A DNA stretch of 64,000 bases from a virus, in the IMG/VR virus record IMGVR_UViG_3300045988_179859. The stretch is one strand, 5' to 3'. Positions 1-4,947 of the stretch are shown here, piece after piece; the first letter of the stretch is position 1, and every line of letters begins with the position of its first letter. The notes below the pieces were generated by a model, which was not told the DNA's origin, made no database searches, and worked only from the letters and a program-made list of their open reading frames with translations. Position numbers and translations under genes: made by a program.

Positions 1-60
1 TATGATATTATATATTAAGCCTTTCTTTTGCAGAGAAGTGAAGTTAGTTACTATTTTAGT

Positions 61-86
61 CGAGTTTTGGCGAACTCGGCTTTTTA
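61..86 (+). terminator. rho-independent terminator
   Basis: hairpin cgagtt..aactcg followed by T-run. Confidence 0.5.
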
Positions 87-87
87 G

Positions 88-116
88 TTGATTTATTTTA
101 AAAATTGTGGTAGAAT
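88..116 (+). promoter_or_regulatory. sigma-A promoter (TTGATT-17-TGnTAGAAT)
   Basis: -35 at 88-93, 17-nt spacer, extended -10 at 109-116. Confidence 0.55.
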
Positions 117-135
117 AACTTAAATGAGTTGTTAG

Positions 136-243
136 CGGTGATGCGCTACCATTAAATGTGCGACAAAAAAGCAGTGATGCGCCACTATTGAGTGCGCGAT
201 AAAAATGCGGTAATGCTCGACCAATAAGTGGGCAACAAAACAG
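136..243. repeat. 3 tandem imperfect 36-bp direct repeats
   Basis: gcggtgatgcgctaccattaaatgtgcgacaaaaaa / gcagtgatgcgccactattgagtgcgcgataaaaat / gcggtaatgctcgaccaataagtgggcaacaaaaca. Confidence 0.7.
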
Positions 244-395
244 CAACTCGTTTACGAAATCCCACCACGAGAAATTTTCCCTCGATTTCGCAATAACCTT
301 ATGGAAGATTAGTCGACGAGGACGGAACAGGCAGCCGTCGCACCCTAGCGGTTTTAAAGAGATGTGGGAGGGTCATCCCACCGGGGCTAATCGAA

Positions 396-424
396 ACAGA
401 CGGCATCGCTCGTCTGTTTTTTAT
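396..424 (+). terminator. rho-independent terminator
   Basis: acagacg-N8-cgtctgt followed by TTTTTT. Confidence 0.65.
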
Positions 425-453
425 TTGACAAAAATCTTTAGAAATGTTAGACT
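425..453 (+). promoter_or_regulatory. sigma-A promoter (TTGACA-17-TGnTAGACT)
   Basis: perfect -35, 17-nt spacer, TGn plus TAGACT; sits directly after terminator 396-424. Confidence 0.6.
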
Positions 454-459
454 ATATTT

Positions 460-657
460 AGTCGAGGGATAGAATCGATGTGGAATATAATATAATAAAA
501 ATTTACACTATTGCGGGCTCGTGGATATAGCTTGCACCCGCCTGTGGGCTCATCTGAGTAAAACAATAACAGGACTACCCGCCTGAGGATTAGACGGTCA
601 TATCCAGCGCGAGGTGAAACTCAATGCGTGAAAACGAACTATCGGTTCGTTTTTTTT
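460..657 (+). ncRNA. candidate about 200-nt structured RNA
   Basis: runs from promoter 425-453 to terminator 632-658; GC-rich segment 500-625 with long-range complementarity (ggatat/atatcc, gcggg/cccgc). Confidence 0.3.
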
Positions 658-658
658 A
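632..658 (+). terminator. rho-independent terminator
   Basis: aacgaac-N5-gttcgtt followed by T8. Confidence 0.65.
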
Positions 659-750
659 TTTGGTAAGCGACGGACTATTATTTTCAAATTTTTGAAAATA
701 ATCGAAGAAATTAGCAAGTGTTTCTAAAAATTTGAAGATAGTCTTTGATG

Positions 751-779
751 TTGATTTTGTTTTCGAACTGTGATAGAAT
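751..779 (+). promoter_or_regulatory. sigma-A promoter (TTGATT-17-TGnTAGAAT)
   Basis: -35 at 751-756, -10 at 774-779 with TG at 771-772. Confidence 0.55.
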
Positions 780-855
780 AGATTTACTAAATAAAAATTT
801 CGAATTTTTGACGGAGCAACGTTACGACGATGTTCTATTTTTTTTATTTTTTTTG

Positions 856-884
856 TTGACGTTTTTCGAGATTTGTGGTAGACT
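856..884 (+). promoter_or_regulatory. sigma-A promoter (TTGACG-17-TGnTAGACT)
   Basis: -35 at 856-861, -10 at 879-884, TG at 876-877. Confidence 0.55.
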
Positions 885-890
885 ATAGTT

Positions 891-1007
891 AGTCGAAAAT
901 GTAAAGGTGTTCGCCCACCTATTAAGCGGCGGCGATAACGATTTTGGAGATTCCGCGCCTTACTGGAAGTTTTAATTTTGAGTCGAGTCTTGTACTCGAT
1001 CTTTTTT
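891..1007 (+). ncRNA. candidate small RNA (about 115 nt)
   Basis: promoter 856-884, hairpin ggtg-ttcgc-ccacc, terminator 980-1008. Confidence 0.3.
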
Positions 1008-1008
1008 A
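980..1008 (+). terminator. rho-independent terminator
   Basis: tcgagt-N5-actcga followed by T6. Confidence 0.6.
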
Positions 1009-1037
1009 TTGCATTATTTTCGAATTTTTGATAGAAT
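1009..1037 (+). promoter_or_regulatory. sigma-A promoter (TTGCAT-17-TGnTAGAAT)
   Basis: -35 at 1009-1014, -10 at 1032-1037. Confidence 0.55.
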
Positions 1038-1043
1038 ACAATC

Positions 1044-1196
1044 AAAAGACATCGTTAAAATGACAGCCGTGACGGTTCTGACGGCTTTGCCAAATAAAAA
1101 TTGACCGAATTGATGATAGCTGTGACAGTTCTGACAGCTTAGACAACTAAAAAGTGACTGAAACGATGTAACGATGGAGTTTTCTCTATCGTTTTT
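1044..1196 (+). ncRNA. candidate small RNA with two covarying hairpins (or two micro-ORFs)
   Basis: hairpins 1065-1086 and 1118-1139 share the loop GAC(G/A)GTTCTG; their stems differ by compensatory changes. Confidence 0.35.
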
Positions 1197-1197
1197 C
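1168..1197 (+). terminator. rho-independent terminator
   Basis: acgatgg..ctatcgt followed by T5. Confidence 0.5.
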
Positions 1198-1198
1198 T

Positions 1199-1227
1199 TT
1201 GACAGTTTTCGTCATTTTTGATAGAAT
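1199..1227 (+). promoter_or_regulatory. sigma-A promoter (TTGACA-17-TGnTAGAAT)
   Basis: -35 at 1199-1204, -10 at 1222-1227, TG at 1219-1220. Confidence 0.6.
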
Positions 1228-1233
1228 ATAGTT

Positions 1234-1698
1234 ATGGAACCGGAAATTCCGTTAGATTGTTGAGGTGCATAGGTCGCTACGGATTTGTGTGCGTAGATCT
1301 GAAAATTGGTTTGCTTGGGATCCGAATCGTAGATAAAACAAGCCGTGGTTGTTTCGATACCATATAGTCGATACAGTCAAAGCTTATCAGAATTGTTCTG
1401 TAAAAAGTTATTTCGATTAGAATTAGTGACTCTAATCTATGTTCGAGAAATAACAAAAAATCATGATCGTTGGTGACAACAAAGGTTATGTGACGGTTAC
1501 GTTAGAGTAAGGTCAGATGTGTCGAAAGCTATCAGCAAGCGCCATGTTGGTAGTTGTACATCTTTGAATTGGGTTTTCGGTGAATACCGCGGGGCGTAAG
1601 AAAACCGAATGTGATTGCGAATTCGATTAAGATATGGCTTTTTCGAATTTAAAATTGCATATTTAGGAGGAACAGACGACCTTGATCGTCTGTTTTTT
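1234..1698 (+). ncRNA. candidate about 465-nt non-coding transcript
   Basis: runs from promoter 1199-1227 to terminator 1672-1699; no + strand ORF of 60 aa or more and no ORF preceded by an SD. Confidence 0.25.
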
Positions 1699-1699
1699 A
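1672..1699 (+). terminator. rho-independent terminator (duplicate of 396-424)
   Basis: acagacg-N9-cgtctgt followed by T6. Confidence 0.65.
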
Positions 1700-1700
1700 T

Positions 1701-1729
1701 TTGACATATCTTAAGAAATATGTTAGACT
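1701..1729 (+). promoter_or_regulatory. sigma-A promoter (TTGACA-17-TGnTAGACT), duplicate of 425-453
   Basis: same terminator-promoter module as 396-453. Confidence 0.6.
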
Positions 1730-1736
1730 GAAAATC

Positions 1737-1806
1737 TAGTGAAAAATCACTAGAAAAATAAACATAATAAGACACAAAATTGATCGAGAATTTCTCGATC
1801 TTTTTT
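1737..1806 (+). ncRNA. sRNA-like unit 1 of 4 tandem paralogues
   Basis: promoter, then 5' hairpin ctagtgaaaaatcactag, then terminator. Confidence 0.35.
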
Positions 1807-1807
1807 G
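1781..1807 (+). terminator. rho-independent terminator
   Basis: gatcgag-N5-ctcgatc followed by T6. Confidence 0.65.
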
Positions 1808-1836
1808 TTGACAAGTGCTTGATTTTTTGATATACT
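1808..1836 (+). promoter_or_regulatory. sigma-A promoter (TTGACA-17-TGnTATACT)
   Basis: -35 at 1808-1813, -10 at 1831-1836. Confidence 0.6.
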
Positions 1837-1842
1837 TAATAG

Positions 1843-1924
1843 TGCTTCTGAGTAGAAGCTCTCCAATATTTTTTTTGTTTTTATACTCCTGGAAAAGACT
1901 GAAGATAGTTCTTCGGTCTTTTTT
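1843..1924 (+). ncRNA. sRNA-like unit 2
   Basis: 5' hairpin gcttctgagtagaagc, then CTCCAATA motif, then terminator. Confidence 0.35.
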
Positions 1925-1925
1925 G
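1895..1925 (+). terminator. rho-independent terminator
   Basis: gactgaaga-N4-tcttcggtc followed by T6. Confidence 0.6.
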
Positions 1926-1926
1926 T

Positions 1927-1955
1927 TTGACAAAAATTCAATTTTATGCTATACT
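1927..1955 (+). promoter_or_regulatory. sigma-A promoter (TTGACA-17-TGnTATACT)
   Basis: -35 at 1927-1932, -10 at 1950-1955. Confidence 0.6.
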
Positions 1956-1961
1956 TAATAA

Positions 1962-2031
1962 TGTCCTCATAAAGAGGATCTCCTTAAATTTATTTCCGCG
2001 AAAAGCCGGAGGAAGAGTTCTTCGGTTTTTT
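1962..2031 (+). ncRNA. sRNA-like unit 3
   Basis: 5' hairpin gtcctcataaagaggatc, then CTCCTTAAAT, then terminator. Confidence 0.35.
2001..2031 (+). terminator. rho-independent terminator
   Basis: A-tract/GC stem then T6. Confidence 0.45.
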
Positions 2032-2034
2032 GTG

Positions 2035-2063
2035 TTGACAAAATATTCTTTTTATGATAAACT
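2035..2063 (+). promoter_or_regulatory. sigma-A promoter (TTGACA-17-TGnTAAACT)
   Basis: -35 at 2035-2040, -10 at 2058-2063. Confidence 0.55.
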
Positions 2064-2069
2064 TATAAG

Positions 2070-2150
2070 TGCTCGGTTAAGAAGCACCTCCAATAAATAT
2101 TTTGTGATTATGCCATAGGGAAAAGCGTCGAGAAGTCGGCGTTTTTCTTT
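2070..2150 (+). ncRNA. sRNA-like unit 4
   Basis: 5' hairpin gtgctcggttaagaagcac, then CTCCAATAAAT, then terminator. Confidence 0.35.
2124..2150 (+). terminator. rho-independent terminator
   Basis: gcgtcga-N4-tcggcgt followed by T5. Confidence 0.45.
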
Positions 2151-2178
2151 TGCGTAATTTTTAGGTGTGTGCTATAAT
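2150..2178 (+). promoter_or_regulatory. sigma-A promoter (TTGCGT-17-TGnTATAAT)
   Basis: -10 TATAAT at 2173-2178 with TGc. Confidence 0.55.
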
Positions 2179-2313
2179 GGAAACTGTAGAGAAAACTATC
2201 GCGAATGCGTAGCTAATGGATCAGATGTCGGTCTGCCAGGTTGATGATTCGTAAAAGGCTGAATCAGGTTTTGCATATTTGTCCGTAAGCAGATATCTTA
2301 ATAAATATGCCTC

Positions 2314-2340
2314 GGAGAGCTGTAAACAGGCTCTTTTTTG
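2314..2340 (+). terminator. rho-independent terminator
   Basis: gagagc..gctctt followed by T6. Confidence 0.5.
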
Positions 2341-2358
2341 TGTAATTAAAAAAAGCAC

Positions 2359-2387
2359 TTGACAGATGTTATTGATTGTGGTACTCT
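2359..2387 (+). promoter_or_regulatory. sigma-A promoter (TTGACA-17-TGnTACTCT)
   Basis: -35 at 2359-2364, -10 at 2382-2387. Confidence 0.5.
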
Positions 2388-2393
2388 ATAGTT

Positions 2394-2479
2394 GTCCTCG
2401 TAGGGATGGTATAAGGATTAGAGTCTGGGCAATGGGCTGTAGAAACACTGAAGAGAAGTCTCTTCAGTGTTTTTTTTTG
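2394..2479 (+). ncRNA. candidate small RNA (about 85 nt)
   Basis: promoter 2359-2387 followed by strong terminator 2445-2480. Confidence 0.3.
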
Positions 2480-2480
2480 C
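2445..2480 (+). terminator. rho-independent terminator
   Basis: 11-bp stem acactgaagag/ctcttcagtgt followed by T9. Confidence 0.7.
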
Positions 2481-2482
2481 GT

Positions 2483-2510
2483 AAAAAAAAGCAACTACTC
2501 AGTAGTTGCT
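2483..2510 (-). terminator. terminator for minus-strand micro-ORF
   Basis: A8 then gcaactact-c-agtagttgc; on the minus strand the hairpin is followed by T8. Confidence 0.5.
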
Positions 2511-2532
2511 TTCTGTTGGGTGGCGTTAACGA

Positions 2533-2634
2533 TTATTCGTCATCATCGTCATCGTCACCCCAACGCTCTTCAGCCCAATCCGGAATGTCATCGCCGAATC
2601 GTTCTTCGAGCCAATCTGGATAGTTGTTTGGCAT
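2533..2634 (-). CDS. 33-aa highly acidic peptide MPNNYPDWLEERFGDDIPDWAEERWGDDDDDDE
   Basis: GGTGAGGA Shine-Dalgarno 5 nt upstream of ATG; internal repeat PDW-EER-GDD; terminator downstream on the minus strand. Confidence 0.35.
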   Translation of the reverse strand: MPNNYPDWLEERFGDDIPDWAEERWGDDDDDDE

Positions 2635-2700
2635 GATCCTCACCACTTTTCTGTTTTTGTTACTTTTATTATATGTTTCTATTTATATTTTAGCAAGAGG

Positions 2701-2728
2701 TTGTTTTATTAGAAGAGAGTGCTATAAT
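2701..2728 (+). promoter_or_regulatory. sigma-A promoter (TTGTTT-16-TGnTATAAT) upstream of CDS 2764
   Basis: extended -10 TGCTATAAT at 2720-2728. Confidence 0.5.
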
Positions 2729-2763
2729 ATAAGTGAAATTATTTAGAAATCAGGTGAATTGTT

Positions 2764-3765
2764 ATGGACATGGTTGAGTTGATTGATATGTATCGAACTA
2801 AATTAGATAGTGATCCTTACAGTTGTTTGCTTTTCGCGTTACAGTTACCGAGTATTTGTTCACGAATAGAATATCCTAAAGATTCATCGTTCGATTTTGG
2901 TTTTTATAAAGGCGATAATCGTGTCGATGATGGAAGTTTATATAAAGTTTGGTTGTATAATCATATTGATTCTTTTAAATCTTTATTTTGTCCGCGGATT
3001 GATGTTAATTCGTTTATCAACGATATTTATAAATTGAGATGCAAATTAACGCATACGGGCATTTTATGTGATGATGATTGTCAAAGTGTTGATGCAGAAA
3101 CAACTTTTTATTTTGTTGACAGCCCATATCGAGAAGATGCTAAGTTTGAAAGGGAGGGTAGTTTATTCTTTTTACCATTACCGCAATTTTGTCGAACGAT
3201 GTATAATATTGCGGAAAATGTTATTTTTAGTAATACTATTCCTAACGTAACACCTTATTCTGATCTCTTATTATCGTCTGATGATTTTCATAGAATTCAA
3301 GCCGCGATTCATGTTAAGAATATTGCTGTTTCGGATGCAAGTGATTATGATGATAAAGATTGGTTACTTAAGAATATTTATGATAGATTGTTTGTTGCAA
3401 ATAATCCTTTTGAATTTAGATTAAAATTCATTAAAACAAAGAAGACGGCTAAGGACGCTGATCTTCGAGTATTAGGGTTTAATTCTAATACGAAAGAAGC
3501 TTTCGAAAAATTTTATGCTGAAAACCCTGGTGGTATTTATGAAATTTGGGATTTTTGTAATAAATATGATTGTGTTTTTGATGAAAATGAGTATTTTATT
3601 AAAAAGAAATATGATGAAGATAAATCGGAATTTTGTAAAAATTTCAAAAGATCTACAACTGTATTATGTTTATCTAAAAAAGATTATGATCGAATGTGCG
3701 AAGTTTGGTCTTCTCTTGATTATTTCGATAGACATTATTCTATGAGTTTGGATGATATTCTATAG
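2764..3765 (+). CDS. hypothetical protein, possible HEPN-like (Rx4H motif LRCKLTH)
   Basis: 333-aa ORF directly downstream of promoter 2701-2728; contains R-x4-H. Confidence 0.55.
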   Translation: MDMVELIDMYRTKLDSDPYSCLLFALQLPSICSRIEYPKDSSFDFGFYKGDNRVDDGSLYKVWLYNHIDSFKSLFCPRIDVNSFINDIYKLRCKLTHTGILCDDDCQSVDAETTFYFVDSPYREDAKFEREGSLFFLPLPQFCRTMYNIAENVIFSNTIPNVTPYSDLLLSSDDFHRIQAAIHVKNIAVSDASDYDDKDWLLKNIYDRLFVANNPFEFRLKFIKTKKTAKDADLRVLGFNSNTKEAFEKFYAENPGGIYEIWDFCNKYDCVFDENEYFIKKKYDEDKSEFCKNFKRSTTVLCLSKKDYDRMCEVWSSLDYFDRHYSMSLDDIL

Positions 3766-3782: not shown

Positions 3783-3816
3783 AAAATAAAAGACACTCGT
3801 AAGAGTGTCTTTTTTA
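3783..3816. terminator. bidirectional terminator aaagacactc-gtaa-gagtgtcttt
   Basis: A-run, then 10-bp stem, then T-run; near-identical copy at 59603-59640. Confidence 0.65.
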
Positions 3817-4947
3817 GTTAAACATTTTATCGAAAATAGCGGCGAGAACATCAACAACGATGGCATTACCTGCTTGTTTGTAGAGTTGCGTGTCACTATT
3901 GACGGCTTTGGCTTTATAGAAGTCTTCATCGGTGCATCCCATCAAGCGCCAACATTCGAGAGGTGTCAATTTGCGAATTTTAAAATCAGGCATTTCTAAA
4001 ACGTAATTGTCTTTTTGAACAGAGGTGAGTGTATTAGAGACGCCGTTTTGATTTAATTCGAAATGTTGCTTGGTGATTGTTTTTGTCGGATCGTTAGGAT
4101 CTTTTTCGTAACGTCCACGACTGGCACCGATAACGAAATCTTTGATTTGATCTTCGGCTTCGCTGATAAAGGGTTGACGCGCACCACCTGTCATAGTTGT
4201 AAGAGTCGGTGCTATGCCATCTGTACTGTAGACGCGATATGGCGATGCATTCACACGATTGGGTCTATCGAGTTGTCCGATTTGTTTAATATCGGTCGAT
4301 GGTTTTAATTTAAAGGTTAATTTAGCGACTTGTTCTTGCGACAAGTAGTGACGGTCTTCAACGTCTTGTAAGAGTACGTCTTTTAGTGTTTTATCGAGAG
4401 GTTTCGCTTCAGGAAACTCGTAAGGTTTATGTTTACCGAAAATAGAAACAACGAAGACGCGTTCACGGTTTTGAGGTACGCCGTAGTCCTTACTGTTAAG
4501 AACTTTCCAGTAGTTTGTGTATCCTTTTGATTCTAGCCATTCTAGCCACAAATCGAAGTTGTGTTTATGTGTTTTTCCGACTAGATTCTTAACATTTTTC
4601 ATTAGGAGATATTTTGGACGTTTGATGTCGATAACTTTTTGACATTCCCACAAGAGACTACTGCGCGTACCACTATTCGGATCCAAACCGTGTTGTAATC
4701 CGGCAACTGAAATAGATTGACATGGGAAACTGTATGTGAAGAGATCGTGGTCAGGAATCGTTTTTGTATCAATTTGAGAGATGTCGCCTAAGTTGTTCAC
4801 CGAGCCGTGAATAGCTTCGTAAGAACGAATCGCATAAGAATCAATCTCTGAGATTGCGACAACGTCATGATCAATATTTGCACGGGAAAGCCCCATTGTT
4901 TGAGTACCAATTCCGCTGAATGCTTCAAAAACTCGTAATTTTGCCAT
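3814..4947 (-). CDS. DNA cytosine-5 methyltransferase
   Basis: FSGIG (motif I), FPCQ (motif IV catalytic Cys), ENV. Confidence 0.9.
   Translation of the reverse strand: MAKLRVFEAFSGIGTQTMGLSRANIDHDVVAISEIDSYAIRSYEAIHGSVNNLGDISQIDTKTIPDHDLFTYSFPCQSISVAGLQHGLDPNSGTRSSLLWECQKVIDIKRPKYLLMKNVKNLVGKTHKHNFDLWLEWLESKGYTNYWKVLNSKDYGVPQNRERVFVVSIFGKHKPYEFPEAKPLDKTLKDVLLQDVEDRHYLSQEQVAKLTFKLKPSTDIKQIGQLDRPNRVNASPYRVYSTDGIAPTLTTMTGGARQPFISEAEDQIKDFVIGASRGRYEKDPNDPTKTITKQHFELNQNGVSNTLTSVQKDNYVLEMPDFKIRKLTPLECWRLMGCTDEDFYKAKAVNSDTQLYKQAGNAIVVDVLAAIFDKMFN

Follow-up and report, generated by a model that had tools for sequence, protein, structure and literature searches.

In low-GC Gram-positive bacteria, small RNAs (sRNAs) that block the Shine-Dalgarno (SD) sequence of their target messengers share a common signature, consisting of a 5' hairpin, an unpaired C-rich motif and a terminator (PMC2790875, PMC4132741, PMC3091779). 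Here we describe four consecutive promoter-RNA-terminator units, named U1 to U4, in the IMG/VR record IMGVR_UViG_3300045988_179859, which covers part of a giant plasmid-like element. The whole 64-kb stretch is referred to as the window. From the pattern of sequence conservation we read U1-U4 as genuine, selected and independently transcribed sRNA genes, and three of them (U2, U3 and U4) carry a CUCC motif immediately behind their 5' hairpin.

The lhrC1-4 genes of Listeria monocytogenes are arranged in tandem. LhrC1-5 resemble the present units as sibling sRNA genes with a promoter and terminator of their own; their unpaired CU-rich motifs occlude the SD sequence, as in lapB, and the five copies are additive or redundant (PMC4132741). 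The csRNAs of Streptococcus, likely the same host genus as here, are alike in having two stem-loops around an unpaired anti-SD tract and several copies per genome, at least one of which is plasmid-borne; besides anti-SD sequence, the tract contains an anti-start codon (CAU in 53 of 61) (PMC3091779). The Rsa-class sRNAs of Staphylococcus, including RsaE/RoxS, share the 5' hairpin and the classical terminator, and the unpaired C-rich motif in their most conserved region blocks the initiation complex (PMC2790875).

U1-U4 are all encoded on the + strand as units of 105-119 nt. As proposed in a first-pass annotation of this stretch, their -35 boxes (TTGACA) begin at positions 1701, 1808, 1927 and 2035, followed by a 17-nt spacer and a -10 box reading TAGACT, TATACT, TATACT and TAAACT, respectively. 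Each spacer also holds a TG extended -10 element. The predicted transcripts of ~72, 84, 73 and 84 nt each start with a 5'-terminal hairpin, continue with an unpaired tract and end in a 3' terminator hairpin with a U-tract, and the T-run of each terminator abuts the following -35 box. We infer transcription from these promoters and terminators, and the near-consensus promoters suggest that it is constitutive. The features are as follows.

1671-1697, + strand: terminator of the preceding ~460-nt RNA unit; its stem varies compensatorily in relatives, and with the U1 promoter it forms a duplicated module (copy of 395-453).
1701-1729, + strand: U1 promoter, TTGACA, 17 nt with TG, TAGACT; hexamers near-invariant in relatives, pairwise diversity of the spacer 0.33.
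1735-1807, + strand: predicted U1 RNA, ~72 nt; hairpin 1736-1753, A-rich unpaired tract 1754-1781, terminator 1782-1806.
1808-1836, + strand: U2 promoter, TTGACA, 17 nt with TG, TATACT; diversity 0 in the hexamers and 0.25 in the spacer.
1842-1925, + strand: predicted U2 RNA, ~84 nt; hairpin 1844-1859, unpaired tract starting CUCUCCAAUAUUUUUUUUG 1860-1885, terminator 1891-1925.
1927-1955, + strand: U3 promoter, TTGACA, 17 nt with TG, TATACT; spacer diversity 0.27.
1961-2033, + strand: predicted U3 RNA, ~73 nt; hairpin 1963-1979, unpaired CUCCUUAAAUUUAUUUCCGC tract 1980-1999, terminator 1998-2033.
2035-2063, + strand: U4 promoter, TTGACA, 17 nt with TG, TAAACT; found in the promoter scan.
2069-2152, + strand: predicted U4 RNA, ~84 nt; hairpin 2069-2087, unpaired CCUCCAAUAAAUAUUUUGUGAUUAUGCCAUAG tract 2087-2118, terminator 2118-2150.

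All four RNAs fold more stably than shuffled sequences (z-scores of -3.3 to -6.7), with U1 reaching -22.5 kcal/mol (z = -6.65). By sequence, each unit thus holds a short non-coding transcript between its own promoter and a Rho-independent terminator. The CUCC motif is found at 1861-1864 in U2, with a second copy at 1886-1889, at 1980-1983 in U3 and at 2088-2091 in U4. No open reading frame (ORF) with both an ATG start and an SD sequence was found on either strand between 1600 and 2760, and a local type I toxin-antitoxin system was rejected on this basis.

Relatives of the locus were retrieved from oral metagenomes via a 333-aa protein encoded next to the units; they are syntenic but divergent. 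Ten distinct versions of the U1-U4 block were compared (loci L001, L004, L005, L007, L012, L013, L015, L018, L019 and L023), with the following numbers of variable columns.

Promoter spacers: 40 of 68 (59%).
-35 and -10 hexamers: 10 of 48 (21%).
5' hairpins: 19 of 70 (27%), some of the changes being compensatory.
Unpaired CUCC and AU-rich tracts: 9 of 105 (8.6%).
Terminators: 33 of 104.

The unpaired tracts vary less than both the spacers (Fisher p = 8.5e-13) and the hairpins (p = 0.0014), and their pairwise diversity is about 12-fold lower than that of the spacers (0.019 vs 0.239). Not one of the 20 columns of the U3 tract varies across the ten loci, only two of 31 do so in U4, and ATAATAAGACACAAAATTGATCGAG in U1 is invariant among the relatives. 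The stems follow another rule and are preserved by pairing. Two pairs of the U2 hairpin have changed on both sides in L012 and L015, one pair of the U3 hairpin passes from UA over UG to CG across the relatives, and the U3 terminator stem is wholly replaced in L005 and L007. In U4 both the hairpin and the terminator stay paired through their changes, the terminator by G-U and compensatory steps. Hexamers that are conserved, spacers that drift, stems kept by pairing and tracts kept by sequence argue together for transcribed sRNA genes whose tract contacts a specific partner. For comparison, the backbone genes of the element (penicillin-binding protein (PBP), AAA ATPase and primase) are 87-94% nucleotide-identical between relatives, and the U1-U4 RNAs are better conserved than the neighboring protein genes.

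U1 is present in all ten relatives that cover the site. U2 is absent from L005 and U3 from L012, both cleanly lost at the terminator/promoter junctions, and U4 is degenerate in L018, where the -35 box is fused to the 3' part. Each of the three CUCC units has therefore been lost in one lineage, while at least two are retained in every relative. By analogy with multicopy sRNAs, this pattern suggests partial redundancy among them.

The first-pass annotation had described four paralogues, each with a 5' hairpin followed by a single-stranded CUCC, as the product of an amplified cassette; this description holds in part. The 5' halves of U2 and U4 are paralogous (z = 7.4; AGAAGC-TCTCCAATATTTTTTTTGTTTTTAT in U2 against AGAAGCACCTCCAATAAATATTTTGTGATTAT in U4), and U2 resembles U3 along the full length of the unit (z = 6.8), a similarity carried by the 3' halves and terminators. 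Between U3 and U4 only the layout is common, with no significant similarity. U1 has the hairpin but no CUCC, and in the unit comparison it showed no significant similarity to U2-U4. Judged from these alignments, U2, U3 and U4 are one family that arose by duplication and recombination, and U1, whose unpaired tract is A-rich, stands apart as a separate RNA. Cassettes have indeed been duplicated and recombined, as seen in the U2/U4 paralogy, in terminator swaps and in the clean unit losses, and the reported duplication of a terminator-promoter module is borne out (395-453 recurs at 1671-1729 as direct repeat D5, 59 nt with 78% identity). The units do not form a free-standing cassette, but are the tail of an array of ~16 units. 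As to its exposure, CUCC does not lie inside a conserved stem. It is predicted to be highly accessible in U3 (probability of being unpaired 0.87-1.0 in four of five variants and 0.64-0.78 in L007) and mostly so in U2, where the two Cs of the motif score 0.66-1.0 and the first CU may, according to where transcription really starts, pair with the outermost 5' nucleotides. U4 complies only partly.

We propose that U2-U4 would act through the unpaired tract that starts with CUCC directly after the hairpin. The tract would pair in trans with the AU-rich 5' untranslated region and the GGAG ribosome-binding region of messengers, encoded elsewhere on the element or in the streptococcal host, and would thereby block translation initiation, while the 5' hairpin may shield the RNA from 5' decay. 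Translation blocking is rated the likeliest mechanism because the design matches the signature of the Rsa-class, LhrC1-5 and csRNA systems. Pairing of CUCC with SD regions is plausible; like the identity of the targets, we infer it by analogy. To the combined reading of four independent non-coding RNA genes, with a tract in U2-U4 that most likely pairs in trans to block translation initiation, we give an even chance.

Several observations weigh against this reading. CUCC can pair with almost any Gram-positive SD sequence, and the motif alone is weak evidence. In U4 its UCC has a probability of being unpaired of only 0.2-0.5, owing to a weak, unsupported alternative helix. The covariation in U1-U4 stems from few sequences and few events, and its statistics are weak. 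A duplex scan of both strands of the window, complemented by a search for 18-mer complements with three mismatches, returned only the self-antisense site as a target. Likewise, the seeds showed no significant pairing with the other 15 RNA segments of the surrounding island (best pair U3 with unit h, z = -2.9 among 60 tests, the unit h segment being deleted in L019). The invariant tracts of U3 (20 nt) and U4 (31 nt) are longer than an anti-SD or CUCC seed needs, and tracts of this length would suit a longer antisense partner or binding by a protein just as well. Finally, the neighboring units include orphan partners of toxin RNases, hinting at a decoy or antitoxin role.

By analogy, U1-U4 are filed as new sRNA genes within the known class of anti-SD-type sRNAs of low-GC Gram-positives, and they present the conserved, accessible seed region that marks trans-encoded base-pairing sRNAs. 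No unit matched an Rfam family at the gathering score, and the RsaE, LhrC and csRNA models gave no match at E <= 10 (searches over three nested regions, including a 426-nt region and positions 1-2700); the sub-threshold matches were to unrelated families and far below threshold. Searches with blastn to E = 10 against PLSDB and a phage collection yielded for U1-U4 only promoter-like, terminator-like or AT-rich chance matches. An exact-pattern scan of IMG/VR with the U4 core found two chance matches (one inside a coding-looking region, one at an apparent gene start), the U3 core had none in IMG/VR, and the invariant 25-mer of U1 had none in GTDB genomes.

U1-U4 were not placed in any of the three described families. 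The LhrC RNAs are chromosomal, induced by LisRK and carry three UCCC sites per RNA, including loops (PMC4132741), whereas U2 has two CUCC motifs and U3 and U4 one each, the present promoters look constitutive and the genes lie on a giant plasmid-like element. The missing Rfam match and the lack of three UCCC sites led us to discard LhrC. In csRNA promoters, 10 bp separate the CiaR repeat NTTAAG-N5-TTTAAG from the downstream -10 box (PMC3091779), unlike in U1-U4 with their TTGACA -35 boxes; a lone CTTAAG in the U1 spacer is unrepeated and not kept in relatives, and was dismissed as a CiaR box. Of the two csRNA pairing elements, the anti-SD sequence is present as CUCC; the unpaired tracts of U2 and U3 contain no CAU. 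The sole CAU of U3 is located in the hairpin loop, 9 nt 5' of CUCC, and that of U4 in the unpaired tract, ~20 nt 3' of CUCC. RsaE differs by its UCCC/CCCC motifs and its conserved chromosomal locus across Bacillales. Kinship with RsaE, to which the first-pass annotation had likened the units, found no support, since the motif is CUCC and the RsaE/RoxS covariance model remained without a match even at E <= 10.

Judged by its predicted genes, the carrier is a conjugative, plasmid-like replicon. It encodes a MobL relaxase, a coupling protein of a type IV secretion system, an actin-like partition protein, a topoisomerase and a D5-type primase, along with a bifunctional PBP (Transgly and Transpeptidase domains), a GbpC/SSSPR adhesin and an NrdH-like glutaredoxin. 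No counterpart was found in PLSDB or among GTDB representative genomes. Scaffolds identical to the window (142 and 119 kb) come from human oral metagenome assemblies labelled ZHAN15, which we take to be the rheumatoid-arthritis cohort PRJEB6997 also used in the paper on Inocles. Inocles are giant extrachromosomal elements of oral Streptococcus, described in 2025, that are present in most human mouths and average ~395 kb (PMC12340149). They come from oral metagenomes, are missing from the genomes of isolates, and encode a conserved bifunctional transglycosylase/transpeptidase together with NrdH and a type IV secretion system (PMC12340149). Inocles do not persist in liquid culture. The present element matches all five traits, with its PBP and NrdH-like gene in the corresponding places of the list, and from its gene content it looks like an Inocle. 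A scan of ten ORFs of the window (400-800 aa) did not find the InoC marker (~454 aa, N-terminal PF13814), the window covering at most 64 kb of the 142-kb scaffold. The host is probably Streptococcus.

The 333-aa protein used for retrieval is encoded at 2764-3765 on the + strand and always adjoins the RNA island. It has conserved Cys and His residues and is hypervariable, with 35-88% amino-acid identity across elements whose backbone is 87-94% identical at the DNA level. No match was found in GTDB genomes, PLSDB (tblastn), Pfam, PADLOC, NCBIfam or PDB sequences, and its AlphaFold model is poor (pLDDT 48). Between the island and this gene, at 2533-2634 on the - strand, a 33-aa, extremely acidic ORF (MPNNYPDWLEERFGDDIPDWAEERWGDDDDDDE) comes with an SD sequence and a bidirectional terminator; its product might be a peptide of the DNA-mimic or anti-restriction kind. 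Close to it lies the gene of an orphan C5 cytosine methyltransferase (3814-4947, - strand). At the other side of the island, upstream of the window and immediately to the left of the array, L001 contains an IS200/IS605-type TnpA gene and a gene for a 514-aa TnpB-like RNA-guided nuclease (L001 4196-6256), with a likely omega-RNA region at L001 6256-6500. This pair occurs only in L001; L005 has TnpA with a 300-aa ORF replacing TnpB, and L007 has neither.

U1-U4 are the most conserved block of a larger RNA island, located at its end next to the 333-aa gene:

1-2480 plus ~330 nt upstream (L001 6906-7237), + strand: enclosing island of co-oriented promoter-RNA-terminator units, ~16 units in 2.8 kb.

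The first 2500 nt of the window are nearly devoid of credible ORFs and filled with co-oriented units on the + strand that share one design, in which a promoter (TTGACA and TAnAnT, 17 nt apart, with a TG extended -10) precedes a short transcribed stretch, and an intrinsic terminator closes the unit. Strict promoter matches number seven in the first 2.1 kb, against five on the + strand and one on the - strand in the other 62 kb, and a terminator scan of positions 1-3000 gave 13 sites, compared to 2.4 +/- 1.5 in shuffled sequences. Four further units precede window position 1 in the scaffolds identical to the window here. The small units a-d, g, h, o and p (L001 6906-7237; window 1-87, 751-1003 and 2160-2480) have the same design, and several small units start with AGTCGA or have GAGTCGAG in their terminator. 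Syntenic arrays were found in L005, L007, L018, L019 and L020. The presence of units differs between relatives, which makes the island modular.

Several island RNAs resemble the RNA half of toxin-antitoxin systems. Positions 134-245, in the transcription unit 88-420, contain three 36-nt repeats resembling ToxI, which match the start of ToxI, as printed in a primer, at 17 of 21 positions (GGTGATGCGCTACCATTAA.. against GGTGATACGCTACCATTAAGTGCGA in Enterobacter plasmids). Their only PLSDB matches are weak (E = 0.09) and are located ~60 nt upstream of annotated ToxN genes. No ToxN homologue was found in the window or in the fetched flanks of relatives, so the repeats are orphans. At 311-388 follows a skipping-rope RNA (RF02924, 54 bits), the sole Rfam match, again with no partner gene; this family has been reported to associate with specific proteins (PMC5737381). 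No terminator separates the repeats from the skipping-rope RNA, and both apparently belong to one transcription unit.

The RNA at 505-640 (unit 425-654) has homologues in plasmids of Lactococcus, Lactobacillus and Streptococcus as well as in streptococcal genome contigs, one of them a complete chromosome (loci L008-L011 and L028-L033). In all ten other loci examined, an RNA of this type directly precedes a gene of ~212 aa for a PBECR4 protein (PF18813), a member of the Barnase-EndoU-ColicinE5/D-RelE-like nuclease family; the chromosomal locus L032, which was read completely, has a terminator-like hairpin between RNA and gene. The RNA shows eight covarying pairs. By analogy, RNA and PBECR4 gene are arranged as in a type III toxin-antitoxin module, and no published description of this arrangement was found. 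In the window, the RNA is bounded by a promoter and a terminator of its own; no PBECR4 gene accompanies it, which makes it an orphan as well.

Further tandem-repeat RNAs occur at 1060-1165 (2 x 53 nt, own promoter), where a search of PLSDB for a toxin partner gave no match, and at ~9402-9580 of L005 and ~8896-9100 of L019 (another repeat of roughly 58 nt x 2, own promoter). The ~460-nt unit in front of U1 (1234-1697) contains no ORF. Its promoter at 1199-1227 is the strongest one (11 of 12 matches), and the terminator at 1671-1697 closes it. The unit is conserved in part and truncated in L019, and could be a larger structured RNA.

Small structured RNA genes packed on a mobile element, skipping-rope RNA included, are also found in phages such as Lactococcus phage 949, in the tRNA/skipping-rope region. 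In 949-like phages the motif lies inside the tRNA cluster itself. Such phage clusters consist mostly of tRNAs, whereas the window has no tRNA and mainly hairpin-tail sRNAs and repeat RNAs. Phage TE escapes ToxIN by means of pseudo-ToxI (PMC5086642). It sets a precedent for mobile elements that use a stand-alone antitoxin-like RNA to overcome an RNase toxin of the host (PMC5086642), and the ToxI-like repeats at 134-245 belong to the same island as U1-U4. The TE precedent and the orphan antitoxin-like RNAs make an RNA-based anti-toxin or anti-defence role of the island a serious possibility, and an island with such orphans is more surprising than U1-U4 themselves.

This raises the explanation that U1-U4, too, are stand-alone decoy or antitoxin RNAs that neutralize toxins or defence effectors of the recipient or of competing elements, instead of tuning ordinary expression. 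They could do this by attaching to a protein, or in the manner of type I antitoxins, as orphans, at the ribosome-binding site of a toxin messenger. The ToxI-like repeats lacking ToxN, the RNA 505-640 lacking the PBECR4 gene that accompanies it elsewhere and the skipping-rope RNA lacking a partner (PMC5737381) are the company that such RNAs would keep. A neutralizer would benefit from strong expression free of regulation, as suggested by the near-consensus promoters, and unpaired tracts so long and invariant are compatible with a specific partner. A hypervariable gene and an orphan C5 methyltransferase adjoin the island. This is guilt by association, however. U1-U4 have no known partner toxin or protein, searches of PLSDB, the phage collection, IMG/VR and GTDB representatives turned up no gene with a homologue of theirs next to it, and they are simple hairpin-tail RNAs, neither repeat arrays nor pseudoknot-like. 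A type III antitoxin proper was rejected, as U1-U4 are separate 105-119-nt units of different sequence and not tandem 34-45-nt repeats from one transcript, with no ToxN homologue. On balance we regard a decoy or antitoxin role of U1-U4 as possible but doubtful.

Still more tentative, and in our estimate unlikely, is its extension to the whole locus, with U1-U4 as the core of a ~16-gene RNA island on an Inocle-like plasmid that neutralizes RNase toxins and the addiction and defence modules of the streptococcal recipient. By analogy, the ToxI-like repeats would then counter toxins of the ToxN/AbiQ type and RNA 505-640 the PBECR4 RNases, and U2-U4, as orphan antitoxins of a type I-like kind or by mimicking the anti-SD tail of 16S rRNA, would silence or distract further toxins.

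Other explanations dispense with a function of the RNAs. The array could act at the DNA level as a sink for RNA polymerase, as an insulator against transcription or as a site for replication or partition, for which dense packing (105-119 nt), co-oriented near-consensus promoters and duplicated terminator-promoter modules might speak. Yet the strongest conservation is found in the transcribed unpaired tracts and not in spacers or iteron-like sequence, and the compensatory changes that keep hairpins and terminators are meaningful for RNA only. In addition, the unit content varies between relatives, and the actin-like partition gene and the primase are located 9-13 kb away. We consider a DNA-level role very improbable. 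Much the same holds for neutral, recently amplified promoter-terminator junk: single units are lost in single lineages and modules recombine freely, but the block is retained in ten relatives in which the flanking gene drops to 35% amino-acid identity, and its unpaired tracts are ~12-fold less diverse than the promoter spacers. Conservation already disfavors this explanation, which we judge highly unlikely. Least credible of all, and hardly to be entertained, are tiny peptides from leaderless or short-leader messengers, or GGAG ribosome-binding sites for minus-strand genes. Both strands of the region do hold mechanical ORFs (24-65 aa), and some U2 variants start with AUG, but no ORF combines an ATG start with an SD sequence, U3 and U4 meet a stop within four codons of the 5' end, and no frame survives the indels of 1-3 nt and the ~9-nt deletion seen in relatives, although the features of the RNAs do.

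If the window belongs to an Inocle, no conserved non-coding RNA genes would, as far as we found, have been noted on an element of this kind before U1-U4; the paper describing Inocles does not mention non-coding RNA (PMC12340149). The RNA-plus-PBECR4 module, undescribed as far as found, is widespread in Lactobacillales. Being more conserved than the backbone proteins, U1-U4 are candidates for self-control or protection of the element in Streptococcus, and as four RNAs of 72-84 nt with defined promoters and seeds they form a compact, testable set. With the island as a whole, it can be tested directly whether stand-alone antitoxin RNAs serve plasmids against toxin RNases of the host, as pseudo-ToxI serves phage TE. 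Should the island indeed neutralize the toxins and defence modules of its recipient, it would be an RNA-only counterpart of the protein anti-defence islands on plasmids.

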